Under the pieces are notes generated by a model. That model worked only from the letters and a program-made list of their open reading frames with translations, was not told the DNA's origin and searched no databases. Below, piece by piece: positions 4,796 through 31,885 of a stretch of 31,885 nt of DNA. The position numbers and the translations under genes were made by a program. Source of the DNA: a virus; the IMG/VR virus record IMGVR_UViG_3300013002_000047, positions 1 to 31,885 of that record; one strand, given 5' to 3'. How positions within the stretch are numbered: position 1 is the first letter of the stretch; each line of letters opens with the position of its first letter.

Positions 4796-4926
4796 CTTTA
4801 TTTCCTTCTCTTTCTGATTTCTGATTTGGGCTTATCACCCTCTACATATATAGTTCATTGCTCTTAGTTTATAGTCACGTTTTATGTTACGAGTTTGTTA
4901 CAAATCGAGACACGTATCTCCTCATC

Positions 4927-4935
4927 TGTTATAAT
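4927..4935 (+). promoter_or_regulatory. candidate extended -10 promoter (TGTTATAAT) facing the helicase promoter
   Basis: TGnTATAAT match; GAGACA lies 17 nt upstream. Would transcribe rightward into the AT-rich tract. Confidence 0.3.
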
Positions 4936-4970
4936 TGAAGAGACAAACTCTAAATTCCTTTGTTAATACA

Positions 4971-4979
4971 ATTATACCA
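4971..4979 (-). promoter_or_regulatory. candidate extended -10 promoter (TGGTATAAT) for the helicase operon
   Basis: The reverse complement of attatacca is TGGTATAAT, about 170 nt upstream of the helicase ATG. The -35 is weak. Confidence 0.35.
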
Positions 4980-5039
4980 CGTTCCTTTCTTTGGATGTGA
5001 GAACCTCAATCTTATGACTTGACATTCTGATTGAAGTGT

Positions 5040-5160
5040 GATTTTTATTACTACACTTATTAATTTACCTATAACTTTTTAAAAAGTGCCATTTTGGCCC
5101 TATTTCGTCTAACCAATAATTGATTTGAAGTTAAATTTTATATAATTTCTTGTAAACCCT
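5040..5160. other. AT-rich tract (candidate DNA-unwinding element / origin flank)
   Basis: Hand counts of the two 60-nt lines 5041-5100 and 5101-5160 give 15/60 and 12/60 G+C. No ORF. Lies upstream of the helicase gene. Confidence 0.35.
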
Positions 5161-5245
5161 TGATACATAAGTTTTCTTGGGTGTTTTGGCATTCCAACAC
5201 AGGGTAATTCCAAGATTCTTAAGTGATAATTTAACGACTTGTCTT

Positions 5246-5270
5246 ATAAGGGGACATACCTTATTTTTAT
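5246..5270 (+). terminator. weak plus-strand intrinsic terminator
   Basis: ATAAGG ggacata CCTTAT followed by TTTTAT. Confidence 0.3.
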
Positions 5271-5457
5271 CACTTTTCCGTAAGTTATCTTCATAAGTCC
5301 TTCCCAAAGAACAATCATCATACCCATAGCTGAATAAGGTTTAATTCTGAAGAAGCGGTTTTCTTCTGAAGGATTATAAGCTTATTACAGGACCTCTGGG
5401 GTCTATCCCAGTTTGGGTGAAGACAACTTGTTGTCGAGGGCTGAATAAGCCCTGTAC

Positions 5458-5747
5458 CTTAGGTTAACTGAAGCAACTTAGGGTATTCCCAAAGTATTCC
5501 CTATGATACAGGGCAATGTTGCCCTCTCTCCAGTCGCAAAGCTCCTTACGATTCACCTCCAATTCTTTCTGATAAAGAAGCAATCCATTGATAATCCCTT
5601 GTTCATCAGGAAGAAAAAACCACTTCCTTTCAGAACAATTTCTTATCATGCTACCAACTTAGGGTCTTTTTTCAGCTTTATTACTTAAGGAAGTACACAG
5701 GGTTAACCTAAGTCCCTCAAACAGCCTAAGCCACTTATCCCCCTAAG
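5458..5747. repeat. Cluster of six CTTAGG/CCTAAG hexamers (three forward, three reverse) around a central CTTAAG palindrome
   Basis: CTTAGG at 5458, 5477 and 5658. CTTAAG at 5684. CCTAAG at 5707, 5725 and 5742 (17-18 bp spacing). A variant lies at 5819. The chance expectation for this span is far below one. Confidence 0.85.
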
Positions 5748-5770
5748 TCATTCCCCCATCGTTAGAATGC

Positions 5771-5834
5771 CAAAAACCCCCTAGCAAACCAGCCGAGGAA
5801 TCCACCAAGGTCAAGAATGCTAAGGGGTCTTTTT
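5771..5834. terminator. hairpin flanked by an A-run and a T-run (possible bidirectional terminator)
   Basis: CCCCCTAGC (5777-5785) pairs with GCTAAGGGG (5819-5827) with one mismatch. It is preceded by caaaaa and followed by tcttttt. Confidence 0.4.
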
Positions 5835-5843
5835 GTGCACCAA

Positions 5844-5957
5844 TCCTATCAGGCGTATGTCAGGAATGCCAATCTCCTATGTTCCCCACTTACGGGGACG
5901 CTCAATGCTCAGTTGCTTATGGTACGCCTCCTATCACAGCCACTGAGTATCCTATCA
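5844..5957. repeat. TCCTATCA iterons (three exact copies plus one TCCTATGT variant)
   Basis: Copies at 5844, 5929 and 5950 (exact) and 5875 (variant). Spacings are 31, 54 and 21 bp, close to integral helical turns. Confidence 0.8.
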
Positions 5958-6027
5958 TGGGCATTTTGCCCAGCTTATGTGGCTTATGGGCGGTCACCTA
6001 ACGGAGCGTTATATTTTACCGATTGAA

Positions 6028-6043
6028 AATAACACAAATGTTA
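6028..6043. promoter_or_regulatory. operator-like site AATAACACAAATGTTA (palindromic core TAACA-N4-TGTTA), copy 1
   Basis: Exact 16-mer also at 6690-6705. Extra TAACA/TGTTA half-sites at 6079, 6096 and 6110. Confidence 0.55.
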
Positions 6044-6065
6044 CTGTTAACGCCTGATATATCAA
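6038..6065 (-). promoter_or_regulatory. candidate minus-strand promoter TTGATA-N16-TAACAT overlapping operator copy 1
   Basis: -35 is the reverse complement of 6060-6065; -10 is the reverse complement of 6038-6043. Would transcribe into the GC-richer ORF-free block. Confidence 0.4.
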
Positions 6066-6181
6066 GCTTTCTCATGAATAACAATACGGAATTTTTGTTA
6101 ATATTTTTGTAACAATAGGTCTCCGTTCAATGTTTCCGGTACATCCAGGTGTCAAGCCCTAGTTTTTAGGGAATTATCCCC

Positions 6182-6210
6182 TTGAAAACAAAATGAAAGC
6201 TTGTCATAAT
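6182..6210 (+). promoter_or_regulatory. plus-strand promoter TTGAAA-N17-CATAAT with TG extension
   Basis: TTGAAA at 6182-6187; TGt-CATAAT at 6202-6210. Lies 70 nt upstream of a plus-strand ATG that has an RBS. Confidence 0.5.
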
Positions 6211-6280
6211 AAGGTTTGTCAGATTAATCAGCAAGCTTCTGGTGAATGCACGTCCTGTCTTCAAGAAAGGATGTTAATTT

Positions 6281-6319
6281 ATGGCAAAACAAAAACAAAA
6301 AGGCGTTAAGTTACCCTAG
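6281..6319 (+). CDS. 12-aa Lys-rich leader ORF (MAKQKQKGVKLP)
   Basis: GAAAGGA lies 9 nt upstream of the ATG. Ends in TAG TGA. The stop overlaps the GTG of the next ORF. Confidence 0.3.
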   Translation: MAKQKQKGVKLP

Positions 6320-6489
6320 TGATTATCGCCATAATAGTGTTTATGATTCATCGAGTTGAAGAATTATCTAGGCTCGTGAGTTTAATTCCAGCACCATATC
6401 GAGATGCTTGGGTTCAGGAAGCGTTTAATTACGCATCCCGTTACCTACCATCTGAATTTGTGGCCTGGTGGTACAGAATACACAAGTAG
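6319..6489 (+). CDS. hypothetical 56-aa membrane protein, possibly translationally coupled to the leader ORF
   Basis: The GTG at 6319 overlaps the TAG of the leader (uaGUG). Product: VIIAIIVFMIHRVEELSRLVSLIPAPYRDAWVQEAFNYASRYLPSEFVAWWYRIHK. It has no RBS of its own. Confidence 0.35.
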   Translation: MIIAIIVFMIHRVEELSRLVSLIPAPYRDAWVQEAFNYASRYLPSEFVAWWYRIHK

Positions 6490-6512
6490 ACTGTGCAACT
6501 GCCATATGCAGA

Positions 6513-6560
6513 CAAAAAAATACACCCAGGATATAAACTTGGCCGTTTATCCTTAGGTGT
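6513..6560 (-). terminator. minus-strand intrinsic terminator ending the 10142-6818 operon
   Basis: On the minus strand: ACACCTAAGGATA...TATCCTGGGTGT followed by ATTTTTTTGT. Confidence 0.6.
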
Positions 6561-6638
6561 CATATGTTATGCACGTGGCATTTATCTATATTTTTAAGTG
6601 TTATAAGACGTGTATATCGCCAGAATTAATTCTGACTT

Positions 6639-6676
6639 GAACCCTAGGAATTGCAGTTCTTAGGGTTCTTATTTTT
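6639..6676 (+). terminator. plus-strand intrinsic terminator of the small plus-strand cassette
   Basis: GAACCCTAGGAA ttgcag TTCTTAGGGTTC (one mismatch) followed by ttattttt. Confidence 0.65.
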
Positions 6677-6689
6677 CTTATGCATTAAT

Positions 6690-6705
6690 AATAACACAAA
6701 TGTTA
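6690..6705. promoter_or_regulatory. operator-like site AATAACACAAATGTTA, copy 2
   Basis: Exact repeat of 6028-6043, directly after the plus-strand terminator. Confidence 0.55.
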
Positions 6706-6817
6706 TATCATACAACAGACTTTGAAAGATTATGACACTTTACAATAGATTACTGCTTGTTGATGGCCTCTACGATACTTTGTGTAGCATCAGCAGTTTC
6801 TCCATCCTCAGTTTCAC

Positions 6818-8539
6818 TCAGAATGACTTAGGAATCCGAAACTTTTGATTCTCAATCCATTCTCTATCGGTATTAGAGATATGTTCACCAACATTTACCT
6901 CCCATAATTCTATGGTTTCTAATACCGCTTCGAAGTTATGTAACCTTTTATAATTCATAGCCATACGCTTGTATAACTTACTGTGTTGGGTAAATCCATC
7001 ACACAACAAGTCATTAAGGATTTTATTTGAGTATACAAAATCCTTTTCATCAATAGCAATACGATTTGCTTTAACAAACTTCTTTATAAATCTATTTTTC
7101 CTCTGTTCATCTGTTTCAACCACCCTAACCTTAGGCATTGCCCATCTCATTTTAAGTGTCGCATGAGCTTTAAAATGAGTTCCAAGTGTCATTCTTTCAA
7201 TCTCATAAATACGTTGCTCATACAACACATCATTTTCAGCTGAATGTTGTGCTAAATTTAATACACCAACATCTTCTTTGTAATACGCAATATAATCATC
7301 AACTCTATGATGACTCCATCCTTTATTTGCAAAATACTTACCAATAATCATAGTATCCCCAAAGGGATTAGTTAAGTCTCCTAACTCATGTTTATGCATG
7401 TTAAATCTTAAAAACGTCAAGTCAAAACCAATATTATGACCTATTAAAACATCATTACCAATAAATGAAATAAACCCCCGTAGCAACAGTTCTATGTCTA
7501 ATCCACTGTCAATATCTTCTTGTTGGATAGGTGAATTTTCTTTTAGAAATTTAGATAGGTATGATTTATTATTAAATCCCTGGAACTTGTCAATTATTGC
7601 TCCATCTCTAACTTTAACTGCAGCAATCTGAACAATTAAATCTTCCTCATAATCAAATCCAGTTGTTTCAACGTCTACAACTACATATTCATCGAAGAAT
7701 TCAATTCCTGTACGCTCATAATTCAAGTAAAAATTCCGATATTCAGGGTCATCAATTCCCGAAGGAACTGGCATATCTGCTGTTCCAGATTCACGCCTAA
7801 ACTCATCTATTTCATCAAGTAAAGTAGTATTATTTGTATCATTTTCAATTGAATCTGATGTTGGAGGCATATCTTCATGAATAACTTCTAGAGTAACTAA
7901 TTCATCAGGTTCACCTAAATATTCATCAACATCTTCAATCATTACTTCCTCATGAATGGGCTCTTTGCCTGATTCAATATTTGAAGTTTCTTGAGGTAAA
8001 ACAGTAGGAATTTCAACTAATTCTCTTTCTGCTTCAGCTTCATCTGACTCATAAATATTTTCCGTATGATTAACAACAGCATCTAACGCTTCATCATTGG
8101 TAAATTCATCTCTGTGACGCAACGAGTAAATGAAGGTGCGTATCATAAAAATGATAGCCCAAACAATCCATCCAAACACACCCAGTAACATGGGAACAGG
8201 CACTGTAATACCCAGAAGGAAGATAGGAATAACGCTGATAAACATCCACTTCATTTCCTTTTGATACTTAGCTGGCCAGTGACGATAGCTCATCTTTGAC
8301 TCAGGTACATTCTCAAGGCGCTCTGTGAGGCTTCTATGTGGCTTCTGAATCTTCTTAGCACCCTTCTCATCGACCCAGCTAAGACCGGTCCCAGGTATGC
8401 CCACAGTGGTTCTAGTGCGACCATTGGCCGTCTTAGTGTAGCGTGCCCCTTTAGTCCCCACAGACCAGCCAACACCCGACTTAGAGGCGTTAATTCTGAC
8501 CGGTCCCATCTTAATTGATTTGCGGTATCTCATTCCCAT
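6818..8539 (-). CDS. DUF4236-like N-terminal domain, transmembrane segment and DEDDh (DnaQ-like) 3'-5' exonuclease fusion protein
   Basis: 573 aa. N-terminus MGMRYRKSIKMGPVRINASKSGVGWSVGTKG. Hydrophobic stretch FISVIPIFLLGITVPVPMLLGVFGWIVWAIIFMI. Acidic linker. Exo motifs VVDVETTG, GHNIGFDLTFL and HSAENDV. Confidence 0.75.
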   Translation of the reverse strand: MGMRYRKSIKMGPVRINASKSGVGWSVGTKGARYTKTANGRTRTTVGIPGTGLSWVDEKGAKKIQKPHRSLTERLENVPESKMSYRHWPAKYQKEMKWMFISVIPIFLLGITVPVPMLLGVFGWIVWAIIFMIRTFIYSLRHRDEFTNDEALDAVVNHTENIYESDEAEAERELVEIPTVLPQETSNIESGKEPIHEEVMIEDVDEYLGEPDELVTLEVIHEDMPPTSDSIENDTNNTTLLDEIDEFRRESGTADMPVPSGIDDPEYRNFYLNYERTGIEFFDEYVVVDVETTGFDYEEDLIVQIAAVKVRDGAIIDKFQGFNNKSYLSKFLKENSPIQQEDIDSGLDIELLLRGFISFIGNDVLIGHNIGFDLTFLRFNMHKHELGDLTNPFGDTMIIGKYFANKGWSHHRVDDYIAYYKEDVGVLNLAQHSAENDVLYEQRIYEIERMTLGTHFKAHATLKMRWAMPKVRVVETDEQRKNRFIKKFVKANRIAIDEKDFVYSNKILNDLLCDGFTQHSKLYKRMAMNYKRLHNFEAVLETIELWEVNVGEHISNTDREWIENQKFRIPKSF

Positions 8540-8558
8540 AATCCGTACTCCTATCTTA

Positions 8559-8630
8559 CTATTTTAACAATCGTGACCAAAAACCTTGCTTAGGAGCCTT
8601 CTCTGTGGCTGGTGTCTCCCCTGTACGTTC
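8559..8630. repeat. about 70-bp direct repeat, copy 1 (paired with 9588-9656)
   Basis: Exact 23-mer gctggtgtctcccctgtacgttc at 8608-8630 and 9634-9656, plus a similar ccaRaaMccttgctta block. Confidence 0.85.
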
Positions 8631-8801
8631 TACAACCCTAACTTGCTCAACTACACTGCCGTCTTCAAGTTCAACCTTGGTAGTCGTGGTTGTGACTACC
8701 TTTTCAGTCATCGAATTTGTTACTTGTTTACTTTGGAATACTTCGAGAGCAACAGGAATAATCAGCAACTCACCAAGCTTTGATAACAAGGCAATTATCA
8801 T
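8559..8801 (-). CDS. hypothetical 80-aa protein with a hydrophobic N-terminus and a GETPA...KQGFWSRLLK tail
   Basis: ATGA overlap with the upstream ORF. The C-terminal tail is shared with the 9588-10142 product. Confidence 0.6.
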   Translation of the reverse strand: MIIALLSKLGELLIIPVALEVFQSKQVTNSMTEKVVTTTTTKVELEDGSVVEQVRVVERTGETPATEKAPKQGFWSRLLK

Positions 8802-8998
8802 TCCATCAGCTGACCGTTTACAGTATCAATAAGTATAAAAAATGTATAAGTAAGTAAAACTAACCCAGTTAGCGTATAAAACAATCTTCTACGCAGTACC
8901 GGATGACGCTTACCAAAACTACCACCAGACACAATACTGACAAATACTGTGAATACGATAAAACACAAGCCAAAAATTTGATACCCATCCAAATCCAT
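8798..8998 (-). CDS. hypothetical 66-aa two-pass membrane protein
   Basis: AAGGAG lies 8 nt upstream of the ATG at 8998. Two hydrophobic segments. Confidence 0.6.
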   Translation of the reverse strand: MDLDGYQIFGLCFIVFTVFVSIVSGGSFGKRHPVLRRRLFYTLTGLVLLTYTFFILIDTVNGQLME

Positions 8999-9056
8999 AA
9001 CCCCTACTCCTTATCTTATTACTCAGAACCCACCTATCAGGGTCCATTGTATACAA

Positions 9057-9120
9057 ATAACCCCCATAGAATGCTTTAGAATGGGCATCAACGCCCAGAC
9101 TATCACACCATGGGGGTTAT
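9057..9120. repeat. perfect 11-bp inverted repeat ATAACCCCCAT / ATGGGGGTTAT with a 42-nt spacer containing an inner TGGGC/GCCCA hairpin
   Basis: Arms at 9057-9067 and 9110-9120, in the intergenic region between 9151-9561 and 8798-8998. Confidence 0.8.
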
Positions 9121-9150
9121 CATACAGCCTTGACCGATTTATGGCCCCTG

Positions 9151-9561
9151 CTATTGAGCGTCCATATCGTCATCGTTATCAGTGTCAAATAATCCAACCA
9201 ACTCACCATTTGAGTCTCTAATTTCAACAACAAAAACATTAGCACCAGAGATTACAGGAGACGAACTTCCTCCAGCATAAAGGTATATTCCTGGAGTATC
9301 TTTTTCAAAAACAAGCCCCGTCTTCTCATAAATGTCCTTTTTCAATTCATCCTGGTAGTCTGATTTAAATAACCTATGCACTTCTTCATACGAAACAATT
9401 GAGTCCCCCATAAAATGCTTTATAATCCAACGCTTCATGGGTTCTTTTTCTTCAAACAATTTATTAATATCGGCTTCAAGAAGAGGCAACTTCTGATTCA
9501 AATCTCTTGAAAATCTTCTTACATGTTCAATCTTTACATTGTATTGCTTTGACGTTTCCAT
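9151..9561 (-). CDS. hypothetical protein (136 aa, AT-rich gene, acidic C-terminus)
   Basis: The ORF-track ORF starts at a GTG (9576). ATG at 9561 has GGAG 9 nt upstream. The product ends ...FDTDNDDDMDAQ. Confidence 0.65.
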   Translation of the reverse strand: METSKQYNVKIEHVRRFSRDLNQKLPLLEADINKLFEEKEPMKRWIIKHFMGDSIVSYEEVHRLFKSDYQDELKKDIYEKTGLVFEKDTPGIYLYAGGSSSPVISGANVFVVEIRDSNGELVGLFDTDNDDDMDAQ

Positions 9562-9587
9562 AATAAAAATCTCCACTTGTATTGTGT

Positions 9588-9656
9588 TTACTTAAACAGT
9601 TTACTCCAGAACCCTTGCTTATGGTTGTTATCAGCTGGTGTCTCCCCTGTACGTTC
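9588..9656. repeat. about 70-bp direct repeat, copy 2 (paired with 8559-8630)
   Basis: See copy 1. Confidence 0.85.
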
Positions 9657-10142
9657 ACCCTGCAATACGCTCTCTTCAATCTGCTTTGTGGCCTGAGCTT
9701 GAAGACGCTGGCTCTGGTCTGCTAGTTGCGCAAACTTATCGGCATAGGTCCTAACATCCTCCAGAGCTGAGATGTATTTCTCATTGAGCGCATCATGGTC
9801 CTGAGACAGCTTCTCAACTTGTTCCTTAAGTTCATCGTTGGCGTCTTGTATCATAGACCGTTCACTCTTAAGCACCTCAGCTTCTTTGGTGATACGTGTA
9901 TTCTCTTCCTTTAAACGTTCGATTTCTGCCTGAACACTTGCCAATTCCTTCAGTCGTAAAGCGTTCCCTGATACAGCACCACTACTCTGGTCAATCGTCA
10001 ACTTTTGGTAGTCCTCATCAGAAATACCTGCATCCGCTAAGTCATCGATGTTGATTCCCAATCGGTCTGCACGCCTGTATAGAGTGGCCCTGGTAATGCC
10101 AATGTCCGTAGCAAGCTTTGCTTTTGAATCAAAGTGTTTCAT
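9588..10142 (-). CDS. HTH DNA-binding protein with a long coiled coil and a C-terminal amphipathic tail
   Basis: 184 aa. N-terminal KLATDIGITRATLYRRADRLGI helix-turn-helix. Heptad-rich middle. Tail GETPADNNHKQGFWSKLFK. GGAGG RBS. Confidence 0.75.
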   Translation of the reverse strand: MKHFDSKAKLATDIGITRATLYRRADRLGINIDDLADAGISDEDYQKLTIDQSSGAVSGNALRLKELASVQAEIERLKEENTRITKEAEVLKSERSMIQDANDELKEQVEKLSQDHDALNEKYISALEDVRTYADKFAQLADQSQRLQAQATKQIEESVLQGERTGETPADNNHKQGFWSKLFK

Positions 10143-10210
10143 GGTGTACCTCCGTATAATCCATAGTTCAGCTATTTACTTACATGATACCACGCAGTAC
10201 GAACCGCGAT

Positions 10211-10323
10211 ACGATACAAATCAGACGATAGGGGAATCTTTATAAAAGAATGGTTGTTCACTTATACGTATCAAGGCCTGTATCGTCATAACAACTGAAT
10301 AGGGGTCTGTTTTACGATACAAA
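10211..10323. promoter_or_regulatory. ACGATACAAA direct repeats plus an inverted GTATCGT upstream of the HTH gene (candidate operators)
   Basis: ACGATACAAA at 10211 and 10314. GTATCGT at 10280. All lie in the 5' leader/promoter region of 9588-10142. Confidence 0.3.
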
Positions 10324-10355
10324 AAAGACATCCCAAGATGGTGCTCTGGAATGTC
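10319..10355 (-). terminator. minus-strand intrinsic terminator closing the ORF-free block
   Basis: On the minus strand: GACATTCCAGAG cacca TCTTGGGATGTC (with G-U pairs) followed by TTTTTTGT. Confidence 0.55.
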
Positions 10356-10358
10356 CTA

Positions 10359-11298
10359 AAAGATTACGCTTGATTTCAGCAAAGTCATTATATCCACAAA
10401 GGTCCATATAAAGCCAGCATCACGTATACCAATCAAAGGTTACATAATCTTGATTATACTGAGTTGCCCAATTACCAAGGGCTCAAGGTGGATTGCTCAA
10501 TCAGCCAATTTCACAAAGTCATATAAGTCCCTCTGGGGCATTTCACAAGCGCCATAGGTGGTCAAATTTCACAAAGTAGACCACTGATACATAATAGGCT
10601 GTGGTATCACTGGCTATCGCATCCAGTGAACCTAAGAGGCAACCAAACGCTATCCACCACGCACGCTGGACAAGTTCGATAATGTGAAGCCGATAAGGTT
10701 GGAATCACGCACGATAGGTAACAACCGGCACTTAGTAGCCTCACCGGCAGGCCAGCCACCTGATTGATTCCATCAATAAAAGCTCTTGACGTGCAAGACC
10801 CAATCAGCCACTTTGAGCGCTTGTCATGCTCCGGAGTATACAGTTGTCCCCTGAGTAGGAATCACAGAACAAATAAATGCTCTATGATGTTGGACAACTG
10901 CTCTAAAGCCACTTCTCACGAAGCCACGACCATCGAAACTCTGCTTGTTGTTAATCAAATCCTCACGCCTCTGATACTCCTACGTGTAATGGTTTCCCAT
11001 CGTGGACATGCCTTTCTGTACCTCTGCCCTCAAACGCCCTATATGAGCCTCTGAGAGCCTTTTAGCCACCCTGTCTGTTACCGGTAAGTAACTTCTGTTT
11101 TTACCATGCGATTTCTCGTTTAGGCTTTGCCATTTGGCTTGGAAGCATCAAAGACCGCTTACGCTCCCCGCACCCCTTAGATGTGAAGCAGTCACACCTT
11201 TGGGCATCTATTTGAATAATCGGGGTTGATGTTCCCCGCCATTGCTGGATAACCTGCTAACGGGGGTCTAACCCGTTGCCAAATGAACCTATAAGTAC
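10359..11298 (-). ncRNA. about 0.94-kb ORF-free, GC-richer, hairpin-dense block bounded by two minus-strand terminators (candidate large structured RNA or origin; strand inferred)
   Basis: No ORF with an RBS in any frame. Hand counts of lines 10681 and 10741 give 29/60 and 31/60 G+C. Many GC stems, including CAGTTGTCC/GGACAACTG and two GNRA-loop hairpins. Confidence 0.3.
10508..10576. repeat. three direct copies of ATTTCACAA(A)G
   Basis: Copies start at 10508, 10540 and 10566. The 12-mer TTTCACAAAGTC recurs inverted at 31218-31229. Confidence 0.8.
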
Positions 11299-11353
11299 AA
11301 AAAAAAGATTCCATACATTACGTGCCTTCATCTAACACGCTCTGTACGGAATC
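11299..11353 (-). terminator. minus-strand intrinsic terminator
   Basis: On the minus strand: GATTCCGTAC ... GTATGGAATC followed by TTTTTTTTGTAC. Confidence 0.6.
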
Positions 11354-11401
11354 CTTGAGTAATCTCCTGACCTTTTACAGTCCTGTTTGGAGCCTTACCT
11401 G

Positions 11402-11429
11402 TTGATTACACTTCTTGATATGGTATAAT
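11402..11429 (+). promoter_or_regulatory. plus-strand promoter TTGATT-N16-TATAAT with TG extension
   Basis: TTGATT at 11402-11407; TGgTATAAT at 11421-11429. Confidence 0.55.
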
Positions 11430-11534
11430 GATTATACGAAATCAGGAAGTTAAAAACGTGCCATATGAGTTCTGGTCATTTGGCACAGCTCGTAACTGAA
11501 GTTGGTAGCTTCTGTCACTTGCCTTTACTGATAT

Positions 11535-11563
11535 TTAATTGATAGACTAAGTTTATCAATTAA
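11535..11563. promoter_or_regulatory. perfect 10-bp inverted repeat TTAATTGATA-N9-TATCAATTAA (operator or RNA hairpin)
   Basis: Read directly from the sequence. Overlaps the -10 region of the minus-strand TTGACA promoter. Confidence 0.6.
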
Positions 11564-11579
11564 TCCGGCGTTTTGTCAA
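11550..11579 (-). promoter_or_regulatory. minus-strand promoter TTGACA-N18-TAAACT
   Basis: The consensus -35 is the reverse complement of 11574-11579. Would yield an RNA of about 250 nt ending at terminator 11299-11353, antisense to the 5' part of the plus-strand RNA. Confidence 0.4.
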
Positions 11580-11656
11580 GATAACCCCTTGGGCTATCAA
11601 GGTTTAAGCGCATACACAGCATATTTCTACTCCATAGAATTGCTAAACATACTGAA

Positions 11657-11694
11657 GCTTGTTGTTTGTCCTCCAAGACACAACAGGCTTTTTT
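11657..11694 (+). terminator. plus-strand intrinsic terminator
   Basis: GCTTGTTGT ... ACAACAGGC (9 bp including one G-U pair) followed by TTTTTT. Confidence 0.65.
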
Positions 11695-11796
11695 ATTACC
11701 CTAAAAACACTCCCTGACAGCGTTTCTGTGTAACAAAGTGGACCAAATACCACTAAGTAATGAACTTTTTGGACCTCTGAGAGCAATTCTTATACA

Positions 11797-11854
11797 CAAA
11801 AAAAGCCCCCTGACCGAGCATAGGACCGTTAAATCCTAAGCCAATCAGAGGGCT
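11797..11854 (-). terminator. intrinsic terminator after the endolysin gene
   Basis: On the minus strand: AGCCCTCTGA, a 31-nt loop, TCAGGGGGCT, then TTTTTTTGTG. Confidence 0.65.
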
Positions 11855-11859
11855 TTATC

Positions 11860-12960
11860 TTACTTCTTTAGCAATTCTCCGGCGTTATACCAGACCATGC
11901 CATAGCTACCTTCAACGATTCCAGCACCGTTTGAAGCGCCATCATAGGCATCAATCGTACCATTATCATATCCAGCCATAAACTTCACTGTGTCACCCAC
12001 CTTAGTTGGCGCAACATTTCCACGTGTCACGTTGTCTAATATGGCCAAAGGAATACCGTTCATTGTACAATCAACATCCTTACCACCGGCCATATCATAG
12101 TTGATAGCTTGCCACATGCCGTTTACATAGGCAATCTTGTCCACCTTGAACGTGCCATAGGCTGTGAACCTATCACCGGCGTTCTTGAATTGGTCAATGG
12201 CGCTTACCTTAGCAGGCTTAGCTGGCTCCACAACAGGGTCTGACTTATCATCTGAGTTAACCACTGGTGTTTGACCAGACGTGAAGAAATTATCATACAG
12301 CTGGTTCACATCGAACACACCATAAGAGCTACGGAACGTTGCTGAAGAGCTCCATTGCCAAGCGTGCTCAGTTGAGTAGTAATTTTGCGTTGACGTAGGC
12401 ACATATGGGTATGACGCAATCCAGGCCTTCTCACCAGCTGGCGTCACATCCATATGAGAGCCCATTGTGTACGATGTTGAGCGATACCCACCAACACGGG
12501 ATACCTCGTTCTCAAAGGCAGTTGCTACGGCTTGCATGTTTGCTCCCATTGCCATTTGCGCTGGTTCTTCAATATCAGCTACCAACACAGCACCGACTGT
12601 CAACCCGTCAGCTTGCGCCATTGATACAGCATATTGTGCTTCTGCAATCGCACCAGCCACCGTTGTTGCGTGGAGGTAGTGATAACCGTTCACATAGATG
12701 CCAGCCTGTTGAGCTGAGGCGATGTTACCCTTGGCCGTCCAGTCATGATAGGTGGTACCCTCGGAAATCTTGGTCACCATGGCTTTGACACCATAGGTAT
12801 TCCGCATATCTGTCCACTCAGGGGCCGACATAGCGCCATTGTGATTTGATACATCGACCATGTCAGTTCGTGGAGTGTCCGCATGAGCCACCGTTTGATA
12901 GCCGGCCGTCAAAAATACCGCTCCAGCAATTGCCAGGGCGGTTCTAAGAATTTTATTCAT
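11860..12960 (-). CDS. endolysin: GH25 muramidase with an N-terminal Sec-type signal peptide and a C-terminal SH3b-like wall-binding region
   Basis: 366 aa. Signal-like MNKILRTALAIAGAVFLTAGYQTVAHA-DTP. GH25 motifs VDVSNHNG and VLVADIEE. Sits at the end of the lysis module. Confidence 0.85.
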   Translation of the reverse strand: MNKILRTALAIAGAVFLTAGYQTVAHADTPRTDMVDVSNHNGAMSAPEWTDMRNTYGVKAMVTKISEGTTYHDWTAKGNIASAQQAGIYVNGYHYLHATTVAGAIAEAQYAVSMAQADGLTVGAVLVADIEEPAQMAMGANMQAVATAFENEVSRVGGYRSTSYTMGSHMDVTPAGEKAWIASYPYVPTSTQNYYSTEHAWQWSSSATFRSSYGVFDVNQLYDNFFTSGQTPVVNSDDKSDPVVEPAKPAKVSAIDQFKNAGDRFTAYGTFKVDKIAYVNGMWQAINYDMAGGKDVDCTMNGIPLAILDNVTRGNVAPTKVGDTVKFMAGYDNGTIDAYDGASNGAGIVEGSYGMVWYNAGELLKK

Positions 12961-13270
12961 TTATCGTCTCCTTCATCATCTTTACTGCGGTCTCGATAGC
13001 ATCATCAATCTGCTTAGCAGTAAACCATTTGCCCATACCGTGCTTTAGCAAAGCATCGTTAAGTTGCCTAAGAGCCTGAGCCTTCTGTGTCTGGCCTCCA
13101 GTGAAGGTAACCTCTGTGTACTGAACAGCCCGTGATGCAATCTTGAGTAACTCGACCAGGCGCCTATTGTTGGCAAAATGCTTTGATAGGTACCCAATGA
13201 GCAAAATTAAAAGCGCTGGAGCAATACCTGACTGCCATAGCGCTTCTGCAAACGTTATTAAGTTATTCAT
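12953..13270 (-). CDS. holin (LL-H-family-like)
   Basis: 105 aa, with N-terminal hydrophobic helix GIAPALLILLIGYL. Lies immediately upstream of, and overlaps, the endolysin gene. Confidence 0.65.
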   Translation of the reverse strand: MNNLITFAEALWQSGIAPALLILLIGYLSKHFANNRRLVELLKIASRAVQYTEVTFTGGQTQKAQALRQLNDALLKHGMGKWFTAKQIDDAIETAVKMMKETINE

Positions 13271-31428: not shown

Positions 31429-31885
31429 TTTCCATAGAGCCTGTCCCTAAGCACCTTAGACCACCATTCCTTAGTAAGGTGCCTGAGCATATCTCCCTTG
31501 CCTTCCCTAAGCATCTTAGCTTCCATGTTGGTCTTAAGCTGGTGCTCTCTTCGACTTAGGAGCCATAGGTTGTCTGAGTTGTACCAGTCACCCTCAGGTA
31601 ACAGAGACCGCTTCACTATGTGGTCTACCTGGATGTTGTTATCTCTAAGTATCTGTCCTGTGATTGCTGAGGTATAACTGTCCCTCACTCTGATATGGTT
31701 TGCTGTGTGCTTCCATCGTGTCGATAGGTAGAACGCTGTGGCATCTTGGTCCCTTGATTCTGCATCGTACTTTGCCCAAGCTATCGACATATCATGAGCT
31801 TCCTTCATGCTTCCCTTAATGCCTGCCTTATAACTCAGCATGTAATCATCTCTGCGTTTCTGATTGGCCACTGTGTGCTTCTCAC
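31425..31885 (-). CDS. HNH endonuclease (terminase-associated), C-terminal part; the gene continues across the junction to 187
   Basis: VDHIVKRSLLPEGDWYNSDNLWLLSRREHQLKT is an H-N-H motif. Located just upstream of terS/terL, as in HK97-like cos phages. Confidence 0.85.
   Translation of the reverse strand, partial: EKHTVANQKRRDDYMLSYKAGIKGSMKEAHDMSIAWAKYDAESRDQDATAFYLSTRWKHTANHIRVRDSYTSAITGQILRDNNIQVDHIVKRSLLPEGDWYNSDNLWLLSRREHQLKTNMEAKMLREGKGDMLRHLTKEWWSKVLRDRLYGN
31763..31885. repeat. Terminal overlap copy B (identical to 1-123)
   Basis: See copy A. Confidence 0.95.

Follow-up and report, generated by a model that had tools for sequence, protein, structure and literature searches.

The closest described systems to the gene considered here, open reading frame (ORF) 6818-8539 on the minus strand of a 31,885-nucleotide viral stretch (IMG/VR record IMGVR_UViG_3300013002_000047; this whole stretch is called the window below), are two membrane-bound nucleases. 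SNIPE, which combines a membrane helix with DUF4041 and a GIY-YIG nuclease, cuts lambda DNA as it is injected; its homologues differ widely in their N-terminal anchors, which have one or two membrane helices (bioRxiv 10.1101/2025.11.03.685801). The mycobacterial Mpr is a membrane-anchored 3'-5' exonuclease with a DUF4352 domain that has been proposed to degrade linear phage DNA on entry; its extra domain is essential for defence, and its nuclease region is unlike known nucleases (PMC12596739). The window gene (573 codons plus stop) encodes a DUF4236 domain, a membrane hairpin, an acidic linker, a DEDDh exonuclease and a TPR-like C-terminal domain. By its sequence features it is an intact modular chimera, on which four independent lines of evidence agree, and its product is a predicted analogue of SNIPE and Mpr that is homologous to neither. 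We tentatively propose, giving the idea a little less than an even chance, that this is an accessory gene whose product holds a cytoplasmic exonuclease at the membrane, where it would attack foreign DNA on entry, either as superinfection exclusion or as defence. An earlier, sequence-only reading had not recognised the architecture as a described system. This stands for the family itself, of which we found no description, including in a literature search on DEDDh enzymes with a transmembrane anchor and an anti-phage role, which returned nothing relevant; it does not stand for the principle of a membrane-bound nuclease, which has been published for SNIPE and proposed for Mpr.

The composition of the gene clearly revealed its mixed origin. 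Sliding G+C content is 0.547 at 8300-8524 versus 0.27-0.35 across 7250-8000, in agreement with the drop counted by hand in the sequence-only reading. The maximum-likelihood changepoint of the G+C content at third codon positions (GC3) was placed at codon 142 (nt 8113), with a GC3 of 0.528 before and 0.218 after it (Fisher p 1.6e-11; 0 of 2000 codon-order shuffles as extreme), and the values at four-fold degenerate sites were 0.43 before the break and 0.16 after it. The break in composition is genuine and affects synonymous sites, being more than an amino-acid effect. The backbone genes of the window have a GC3 of about 0.39-0.55, indicating that the exonuclease part is the foreign-looking outlier, and the first 142 codons, with the DUF4236 domain and the hairpin, are the resident gene of this Weissella phage lineage. 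The module junction can be placed at 8093-8113 on the minus strand, where the GC3 changepoint after codon 142 is followed by an RHRDEF motif (residues 144-149).

Comparison with related elements also shows the gene to be a chimera. The closest annotated relative of the window is the circular, collinear Weissella cibaria M2 "plasmid unnamed1" (NZ_CP020929.1, 31,447 bp), with 81% nucleotide identity over 15.8 kb of structural genes. Its orthologue at this locus is a protein of 220 residues without the nuclease, made up of DUF4236, the same hairpin, an HRSEF motif and a short acidic tail; its identity to residues 1-180 of the window protein is 46%. Stand-alone proteins with DUF4236, hairpin and tail are common (P0084 and many others), and the nuclease with its C-terminal domain is found, at 51-58% identity, in other Weissella prophages, where a plain membrane helix at the N-terminus and an acidic linker precede it, so that both halves of the gene, which the sequence-only reading had suggested searching for separately, do occur unfused. 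At the nucleotide level, window positions 9177-8091 are 88% identical to phage L011, the match ending at 8091, and positions 8561-7932 match plasmid L004 at 87.6%. The exonuclease part reaches just 66% identity to either of them and is closest to that of the W. cibaria plasmid pNH9449-2 (76.5%). Furthermore, three elements still have, past the end of the nuclease gene, what is left of the ancestral tail. Intact orphan ORFs of 41 and 43 residues, homologous to the M2 protein C-terminus (...KKLDELETELVPTPDIDLSVTAEEPDVTKQVVEAMDK), follow the nuclease genes of pNH9449-2 and L011, and the window retains, by homology to these orphan ORFs and to the M2 C-terminus, a decayed 3'-end remnant of the ancestral DUF4236-hairpin gene, VILSETEDGETADATQSIVEAINKQ*, at 6750-6827 on the minus strand; it is start-less, is read in a different frame and extends over the stop codon of the exonuclease gene. 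Taken together, the unfused orthologue, the nuclease behind another anchor, the nucleotide mosaic and the tail remnant imply that an AT-rich cassette carrying acidic linker, DEDDh exonuclease and TPR-like domain was recombined into the acidic tail of a resident gene. The in-frame join at about codon 140 that had been suggested from composition is borne out by the unfused orthologue, the identity mosaics and the ancestral 3'-end remnant.

The cassette also seems to move. In phage L029 (742-2472), codons 140-573 differ from those of the window at 5 of 434 codons while backbone identity is 68-91%, and a nuclease part that is nearly identical on diverged backbones implies that the cassette, or else the fused gene as a whole, was exchanged very recently. 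The window and L029 copies differ by 12 synonymous and 7 non-synonymous codon changes. The junctions within the low-complexity linker vary between elements. Whatever the function of the protein, the locus is a clean, datable case of phage domain shuffling, in which the break in composition, the unfused orthologue and the gene end left behind can all be seen.

The multi-part architecture described in the sequence-only reading was correct, as Pfam, hydropathy, charge and AlphaFold2 together give four or five parts. The ORF is preceded by a ribosome-binding site, AGGAG, at about 8548-8552, 8 nt ahead of the ATG. The DUF4236 domain (residues 3-55; 8375-8533, minus strand) matches Pfam PF14020 with an E value of 4.9e-23 and a score of 81.8 bits (cutoff 27) over profile positions 1-54 of 55. 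It is basic and Gly/Ser/Thr-rich, and the first 58 codons are 69.7% identical in nucleotides to the M2 orthologous gene. AlphaFold2 predicts beta strands here with a confidence score (pLDDT) of 30-40, from an alignment of four sequences only, and no DUF4236 fold can be deduced from this model. A literature search on DUF4236 found one paper, with a single passing mention, and no functional description. Residues 1-95 carry a net charge of +15 and lead into the hydrophobic hairpin (residues 96-140; 8120-8254, minus strand), in which Kyte-Doolittle hydropathy is 1.7-2.4 and AlphaFold2 places two helices, at residues 91-110 and 116-146, separated by a short Pro-rich turn; both ends of the hairpin are probably cytoplasmic. 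An HRDEF, HRSEF or HKDEF motif follows the hairpin in the M2 protein, P0084, P0087 and P0089, corresponding to RHRDEF in the window protein. The acidic, disordered linker (residues 141-280; 7700-8119, minus strand) has a net charge of -34, with pLDDT below 50 for residues 141-238, and its first ~40 residues can still be aligned to the tail of the ancestral DUF4236-hairpin protein, the alignment to the M2 tail reaching residue 180.

The exonuclease domain (residues 281-450; 7190-7699, minus strand) is of the DnaQ/PolC-exonuclease type with 3'-5' polarity. Pfam RNase_T (PF00929) covers residues 286-440 with an E value of 1.1e-16 and 62.3 bits against a cutoff of 24. The five DEDDh residues, D289 and E291 (DVETTG), D373 (GHNIGFD), and H432 and D437 (HSAEND), are invariant in 23 homologues, and the domain thus has the Exo I D-x-E, Exo II D and Exo III H-x4-D signatures of the DEDDh 3'-5' exonuclease superfamily. 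AlphaFold2 models it with pLDDT 70-94. Profile comparison with the PDB matched 2p1j, 8h18, 9qpc, 8fy9 and 8zef; Foldseek matched the exonuclease domains of Staphylococcus aureus DinG and of PolC as well as epsilon, with a probability of 1.00 to PolC exonuclease, DnaQ, epsilon, RNase T and ExoI. The nearest solved relatives (PolC exonuclease, DnaQ, Cas2-DEDDh and DinG exonuclease) are all DNA exonucleases, and together with the invariant catalytic residues they suggest a nuclease that is predicted to be active, with DNA as its probable substrate.

NCBIfam scores lie far under the equivalog cutoffs, with 93.5 versus 873 bits for PolC (NF001688), 42.2 versus 71.5 for TIGR00573 (dnaq) and 30.4 versus 222.7 for dnaQ_proteo. 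The protein lacks a polymerase domain, and its C-terminal domain is TPR-like and not an epsilon tail, so that it does not have the identity of a replicative proofreading enzyme. The view of the sequence-only reading that this is not a standard replication function is in accordance with these scores, and we found no evidence for a proofreading identity. It is not PDC-S48 either, since the PADLOC match spans residues 285-383 only, at profile positions 20-119 of 512, nor a Cas-associated DEDDh protein, for which the PADLOC model matches the domain alone; no cas-domain proteins turned up in Pfam or PADLOC scans of the neighbouring proteins.

The C-terminal domain (residues 451-573; 6821-7189, minus strand) is conserved, and in the AlphaFold2 model five confident helices occupy residues ~477-568 with pLDDT 83-95. 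Modelled alone it reached pLDDT 81, and its mean column identity is 72% in 13 homologues. The best PDB matches are the small TPR domains 3ma5, 1na3 and 1elw, with template-modelling (TM) scores of up to 0.75 and E values of 0.1-0.7; the top 12 matches are all TPR domains (target-relative TM 0.25-0.75, weak E values of 0.14-0.39), and the picture in BFVD is alike. A weak Rgg_C match is present in 9 of 13 members (best E 0.003). With moderate confidence we regard the predicted fold as TPR-like, and protein or peptide binding is presumed. Recurrence of this domain in P0087, a DUF4236-hairpin protein without the nuclease, was considered and rejected (profile comparison probability 1.7%, E 0.029).

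We then turn to the membrane anchor and the family. A hydrophobic N-terminal segment lies ahead of the nuclease in 23 of 23 close homologues, and in a second clade of DUF4236-exonuclease proteins, ~25% identical, all eight members scanned have one, which suggests that the membrane tether may be under selection. The membrane anchoring claimed in the sequence-only reading holds at the in silico level, through hydropathy, AlphaFold2 helices and the hydrophobic segment in every one of these homologues. Three kinds of anchor are found: a single helix starting at residue 1-4, DUF4236 with the hairpin, and a degenerate DUF4236 with the hairpin (P0005). Distant representatives that begin with a membrane helix are P0080 (two nuclease domains), P0081, P0082 (two C-terminal domains) and P0088. 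The DUF4236 N-termini carry net charges of +15 to +22 and the flanks after the single helices are mostly Lys/Arg-rich, so that by the positive-inside rule the nuclease is probably cytoplasmic. The DUF4236-hairpin anchor also carries other cargos, namely HIRAN (P0035), bPH_3 with SHOCT (P0089), and FtsK and TPR domains, and four protein clusters have the DUF4236-exonuclease architecture with differing linker junctions. The exonuclease family is small, with 10 representatives (50% clustering) at E <1e-30 among 1.84 billion proteins, and pattern-based locus searches with the family alignment confirmed no relatives in GTDB genomes, IMG/VR or JGI metagenomes.

The evidence from gene context comes from 12 exact-protein look-ups and two annotated plasmids, and these neighbourhoods appear to favour exclusion over membrane-bound replication. 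Close homologues lie 1-4 genes after the integrase in the Weissella prophages L001, L012, L014, L026 and L027. Full-length DUF4236-nuclease genes, on 15 contigs, are found on a Rep3 plasmid (L004) between a resolvase and an MmeI-type restriction-modification enzyme, 4.6 kb from rep. P0005 is encoded on the RepB plasmid pNH9449-2 and also on L007, where a weak Mob_Pre match is the sole plasmid-type marker, and contig L006 carries pilus and sortase genes together with an integrase fragment. In the distant clade, the gene begins 11 nt after a CI-like repressor gene (HTH_3 and Peptidase_S24) and precedes a serine integrase gene, divergent from a Cro-like gene; in a second case its neighbours on the two sides are an HTH_3 repressor and a tyrosine integrase. 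DUF4236-only genes are found in the slot from repressor to integrase in Faecalibacterium phage FP_Epona and in the lysogeny arm of Latilactobacillus phage TMW 1.1365 P3. The repressor-to-integrase slot is the classic site for prophage-expressed genes that protect their carrier. In L014 (8401-9929) and L026 (2425-3953), two SHOCT-domain proteins and a 149-residue protein are encoded immediately upstream of the membrane exonuclease gene; considered with the bPH_3 and SHOCT cargo on the DUF4236-hairpin anchor of P0089, this implies that SHOCT and DUF4236 modules seem to share an accessory locus.

In the exclusion proposal, the protein would be embedded in the cytoplasmic membrane, its two ends on the inner side, and would hold the exonuclease on a flexible tether of ~140 residues at the inner membrane face, where it would meet incoming linear DNA and digest it from any free 3' end. 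Their location and lack of free ends would protect the chromosome and the resident circular element, and the TPR-like domain and the exchangeable N-terminal anchor may serve as adaptors to the entry machinery or to partner proteins. For cos phages, trimming of a 3' cohesive overhang could leave a genome that cannot circularise. Phages that combine a P27-type small terminase with an HNH endonuclease next to it, as this family does, package at cos sites, and if the overhangs are indeed 3', trimming one of them would suffice against circularisation. A literature search gave nothing usable on the cohesive-end polarity of Weissella phages, so that 3'-overhang trimming is an inference only.

Several points weigh against the exclusion proposal. 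The free 3' end on entering phage DNA that a DEDDh exonuclease needs is assumed, the membrane helices and topology derive from hydropathy, AlphaFold2 helices and the positive-inside rule, and one distant representative, P0083 (313 residues), is without a membrane segment, possibly as a truncated gene call. PADLOC returned domain-level matches only. We infer the timing of expression: because the window has no integrase remnant (tblastn) and no recognised repressor, lysogen-type expression is extrapolated from relatives. Promoter and terminator scans found promoter-like sites to be no commoner than in shuffled sequence, and these sites were not used as evidence. Finally, in at least seven phage contexts the exonuclease gene, a conserved gene-free stretch and a gene for a protein like superfamily 1 (SF1) helicases follow one another in order, and on pNH9449-2 the gene comes after repB on the same strand; both arrangements fit a replication-linked role too.

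The latter arrangements lead to the main rival, that the nuclease serves the DNA metabolism of its own element at the membrane, in proofreading or in 3'-end processing together with the SF1-helicase-like protein and a candidate origin. We consider this unlikely, although the order of exonuclease, 1.2-2.4 kb gene-free stretch and AAA_30/RecD-like protein of 527-541 residues is constant in the window, L001, L011, L012, L014, L026, L027 and L029, and although the pNH9449-2 gene follows not only repB but also a gene for a DNA-binding protein. In the sister M2 element the gap, the helicase and every other gene are retained and only the nuclease is missing, implying that the nuclease is dispensable for the phage, and in L012 the nuclease unit and the helicase gene have a strong terminator-like hairpin between them. 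The plasmid L004 copy, at its distance of 4.6 kb from rep, is flanked instead by the resolvase and the MmeI-type restriction enzyme, and the distant clade is co-oriented with repressor and integrase genes and divergent from replication genes. The best family matches are indeed the PolC exonuclease domain and DnaQ-type proteins, but all PolC and DnaQ equivalog cutoffs are far above the scores (for example, 93.5 against 873 bits). Neighbours in the window that look membrane-associated, including a helix-turn-helix (HTH)/coiled-coil protein with a MinD-like tail, would suit this role as well, whereas the nuclease part is foreign in composition and moves between backbones.

Other explanations need not involve replication. 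A membrane exonuclease might degrade host or competitor nucleic acids during infection to the benefit of the phage, as a lytic-cycle weapon or counter-defence, and since the window gene is co-oriented with all others it could be transcribed in lytic growth; DEDDh enzymes also take many small DNA and RNA substrates, with RNase T, oligoribonuclease and TREX-type enzymes among the fold matches. We regard this as improbable, because the gene is present on non-phage plasmids and adjoins repressor and integrase genes in the distant clade, because the nearest relatives are DNA exonucleases and not RNases, and because no pointer to a specific defence target was found in the neighbourhoods. The nuclease might instead face outward, for instance with one or three helices, and act on extracellular or cell-wall DNA like the membrane nucleases of competence, and the hydrophobic region, 45 residues here and up to 67 in P0024 and P0025, does leave the helix number uncertain. 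This topology is very improbable in the face of an N-terminus that is strongly basic (+15; +15 to +22 in relatives) and has no signal peptide, of single-helix homologues whose helix from residue 1-4 and mostly Lys/Arg-rich flank put the C-terminal part inside by the positive-inside rule, and of the two helices given by AlphaFold2. DEDDh exonucleases are, moreover, cytoplasmic enzymes. That the fusion is a recent recombination accident without selected function, or a decaying gene, seems to us the least credible of these possibilities. The decayed end of the ancestral gene is still in place, so the event is recent, and the composition has not yet equilibrated; however, the frame is intact with a good ribosome-binding site, the catalytic residues are invariant, the same architecture recurs in four protein clusters with different linker junctions and independently in the ~25% identical clade, and the 12 synonymous versus 7 non-synonymous differences from L029 also speak against decay.

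Returning to exclusion of entering DNA, a broader and more speculative form of the proposal, which we consider doubtful, is that DUF4236 with its hairpin might be a modular docking anchor of temperate phages and plasmids of Firmicutes that places interchangeable modules recognising 3' ends, among them the exonuclease here and the HIRAN domain of P0035, at the entry site of foreign DNA. Its exonuclease version would be a one-gene exclusion system not described before, which would tell self from non-self by location and a free 3' end alone, would disarm superinfecting cos phages through trimming of their ends, and would gain new specificities through swaps of anchor and cargo at the acidic linker. 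If exclusion is true, this would be the third unrelated nuclease fold used for tethered guarding of the membrane, after the GIY-YIG domain of SNIPE and the novel fold of Mpr, suggesting that the tethered-nuclease strategy is general and has evolved repeatedly. It would also give the first functional handle on DUF4236, a domain common in phages and here an exchangeable membrane anchor in lysogeny modules, and would have a practical bearing on the phage resistance of Weissella and Leuconostoc strains used in food fermentation.

The window itself has an exact 123-bp direct overlap between its ends (1-123 and 31763-31885), indicating a complete circular phage genome of ~31.8 kb. It is of siphovirus type, with all long ORFs on the minus strand, and the transcription order starts with small and large terminase, portal, protease, capsid and tail genes and the tape measure. 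The lysis cassette consists of a holin (12953-13270) and an endolysin (11860-12960), both on the minus strand. After the endolysin come a 1.7-kb gene-free stretch, genes for an HTH/coiled-coil protein of 184 residues and for proteins of 141, 66 (two hydrophobic segments) and 80 residues, and then ORF 6818-8539; a 2-kb gene-free stretch, a 541-residue AAA_30/RecD-like protein, a 110-residue protein, an HNH endonuclease and a 280-residue protein follow it. The sequence-only reading had placed the gene in a phage early region, which is loose: its place is in the non-structural arm, with the lysis cassette on one side and the SF1-helicase-like gene on the other, and in integrated relatives it is one of the first few genes that follow the integrase. 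A megablast search with the region found no match among GenBank phages. The M2 element carries a RelE/RelB pair between its portal and terminase genes. With no integrase in the window and a relative deposited as a circular plasmid, the lineage may persist as an extrachromosomal prophage (phage-plasmid).

Two gene-free stretches frame this block. That at 4796-6817 (~2 kb) has no ORF of more than 70 residues on either strand and is 70-91% conserved with phage L011, and all relatives have at this place a stretch of 1.2-2.4 kb in which few genes or none are called. The motif ACTTAGG occurs 10 times in the window versus 3.3 expected, with four copies, in both orientations, within 5476-5748. The stretch may be an origin or encode an unannotated RNA; tRNA and Rfam scans gave nothing credible in the window, nor in this stretch at a permissive threshold, and a 331-nt piece of it had no match in PLSDB plasmids. 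A G+C-rich patch of 128 nt within it (5754-5881) is 88.5% identical to L004 11623-11750, on an otherwise unrelated Rep3 plasmid where the copy sits 50 nt downstream of the DUF4236-exonuclease gene. On the minus strand the patch has a promoter-like site (5872-5843) and a terminator-like hairpin (5810-5779), and it could be a small RNA gene travelling with the cassette. A palindrome at 6639-6668 with a 13-bp stem (GAACCCTAGGAATTGCAGTTCTTAGGGTTC) lies 150 nt downstream of the exonuclease stop; having a T-run on the plus strand only, it would end antisense and not sense transcription. The second gene-free stretch, at 10143-11859 (~1.7 kb) after the endolysin, is in parts 80-85% identical to the M2 element, and the corresponding region of integrated relatives has the integrase gene after the endolysin gene. 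Between this stretch and the exonuclease gene, the proteins of 184 (9588-10142) and 80 residues (8559-8801), both on the minus strand, share a C-terminal tail, TGETPA...KQGFWS[KR]L[FL]K (BLASTP E 1e-7), which we take to resemble the amphipathic membrane-targeting sequences of MinD type. The whole block 6818-10142, including the 66-residue two-helix protein (8798-8998), may encode membrane-associated proteins.

Among known systems, the stand-alone and fused DEDDh exonucleases of Firmicutes and their phages (PolC exonuclease, the N-terminal exonuclease of S. aureus DinG, Cas2-DEDDh and PRK06807-type proteins) have the same fold and the same five catalytic residues as the window protein. However, the matched proteins are not described as membrane-anchored or as bearing this C-terminal domain, and the window protein has no polymerase, helicase or Cas partner domain and scores beneath all equivalog cutoffs. 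A membrane-held DEDDh enzyme is known from eukaryotes, where the 3'-5' DNA exonuclease TREX1 is kept on the endoplasmic reticulum by a C-terminal hydrophobic anchor and clears unwanted cytosolic DNA. A TREX1-like structure (9mrc) was among our fold matches; the TREX1 anchor differs in being C-terminal and in its location in the endoplasmic reticulum, and the likeness is one of convergent architecture only. Superinfection exclusion genes of small-genome temperate phages of lactic acid bacteria offer a comparison of gene position. Proteins of the lactococcal Sie2009 type and Ltp of Streptococcus thermophilus phage TP-J34 are membrane-bound, are expressed by prophages from the slot between integrase and repressor and block DNA entry of other phages; they lack a nuclease domain and are presumed to hinder injection by steric means. 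DUF4236-only genes and the distant DUF4236-exonuclease clade share this gene position, and none of the searches made here found sequence similarity to Sie2009 or Ltp.

The likeness is closest to the two nucleases with which we began. Like Mpr, the window protein is, by prediction, a membrane-anchored 3'-5' exonuclease with an additional domain. Unlike Mpr, the window protein has a canonical DEDDh fold, and DUF4352 was not detected in it (Pfam); the host phylum also differs, and Mpr is a host gene whereas this is a phage or plasmid gene. Compared with SNIPE, the window protein has DEDDh and TPR-like domains, with neither DUF4041 nor GIY-YIG detected, and a Pfam scan of it at E up to 1 gave only DUF4236, RNase_T and a weak wing-domain match. 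SNIPE cuts internally whereas the exonuclease here needs a free 3' end, SNIPE is chromosomal in E. coli whereas the window family is found on Weissella phages and plasmids, and the function of SNIPE is demonstrated whereas that of the window protein is a proposal. Like SNIPE, nevertheless, it is a single polypeptide that, by its predicted topology, would have an N-terminal anchor, a cytoplasmic middle part and a nuclease at the inner membrane face; both have an extra non-catalytic domain as a possible adaptor, and in both the anchor region varies among homologues, in the window family across three anchor types.

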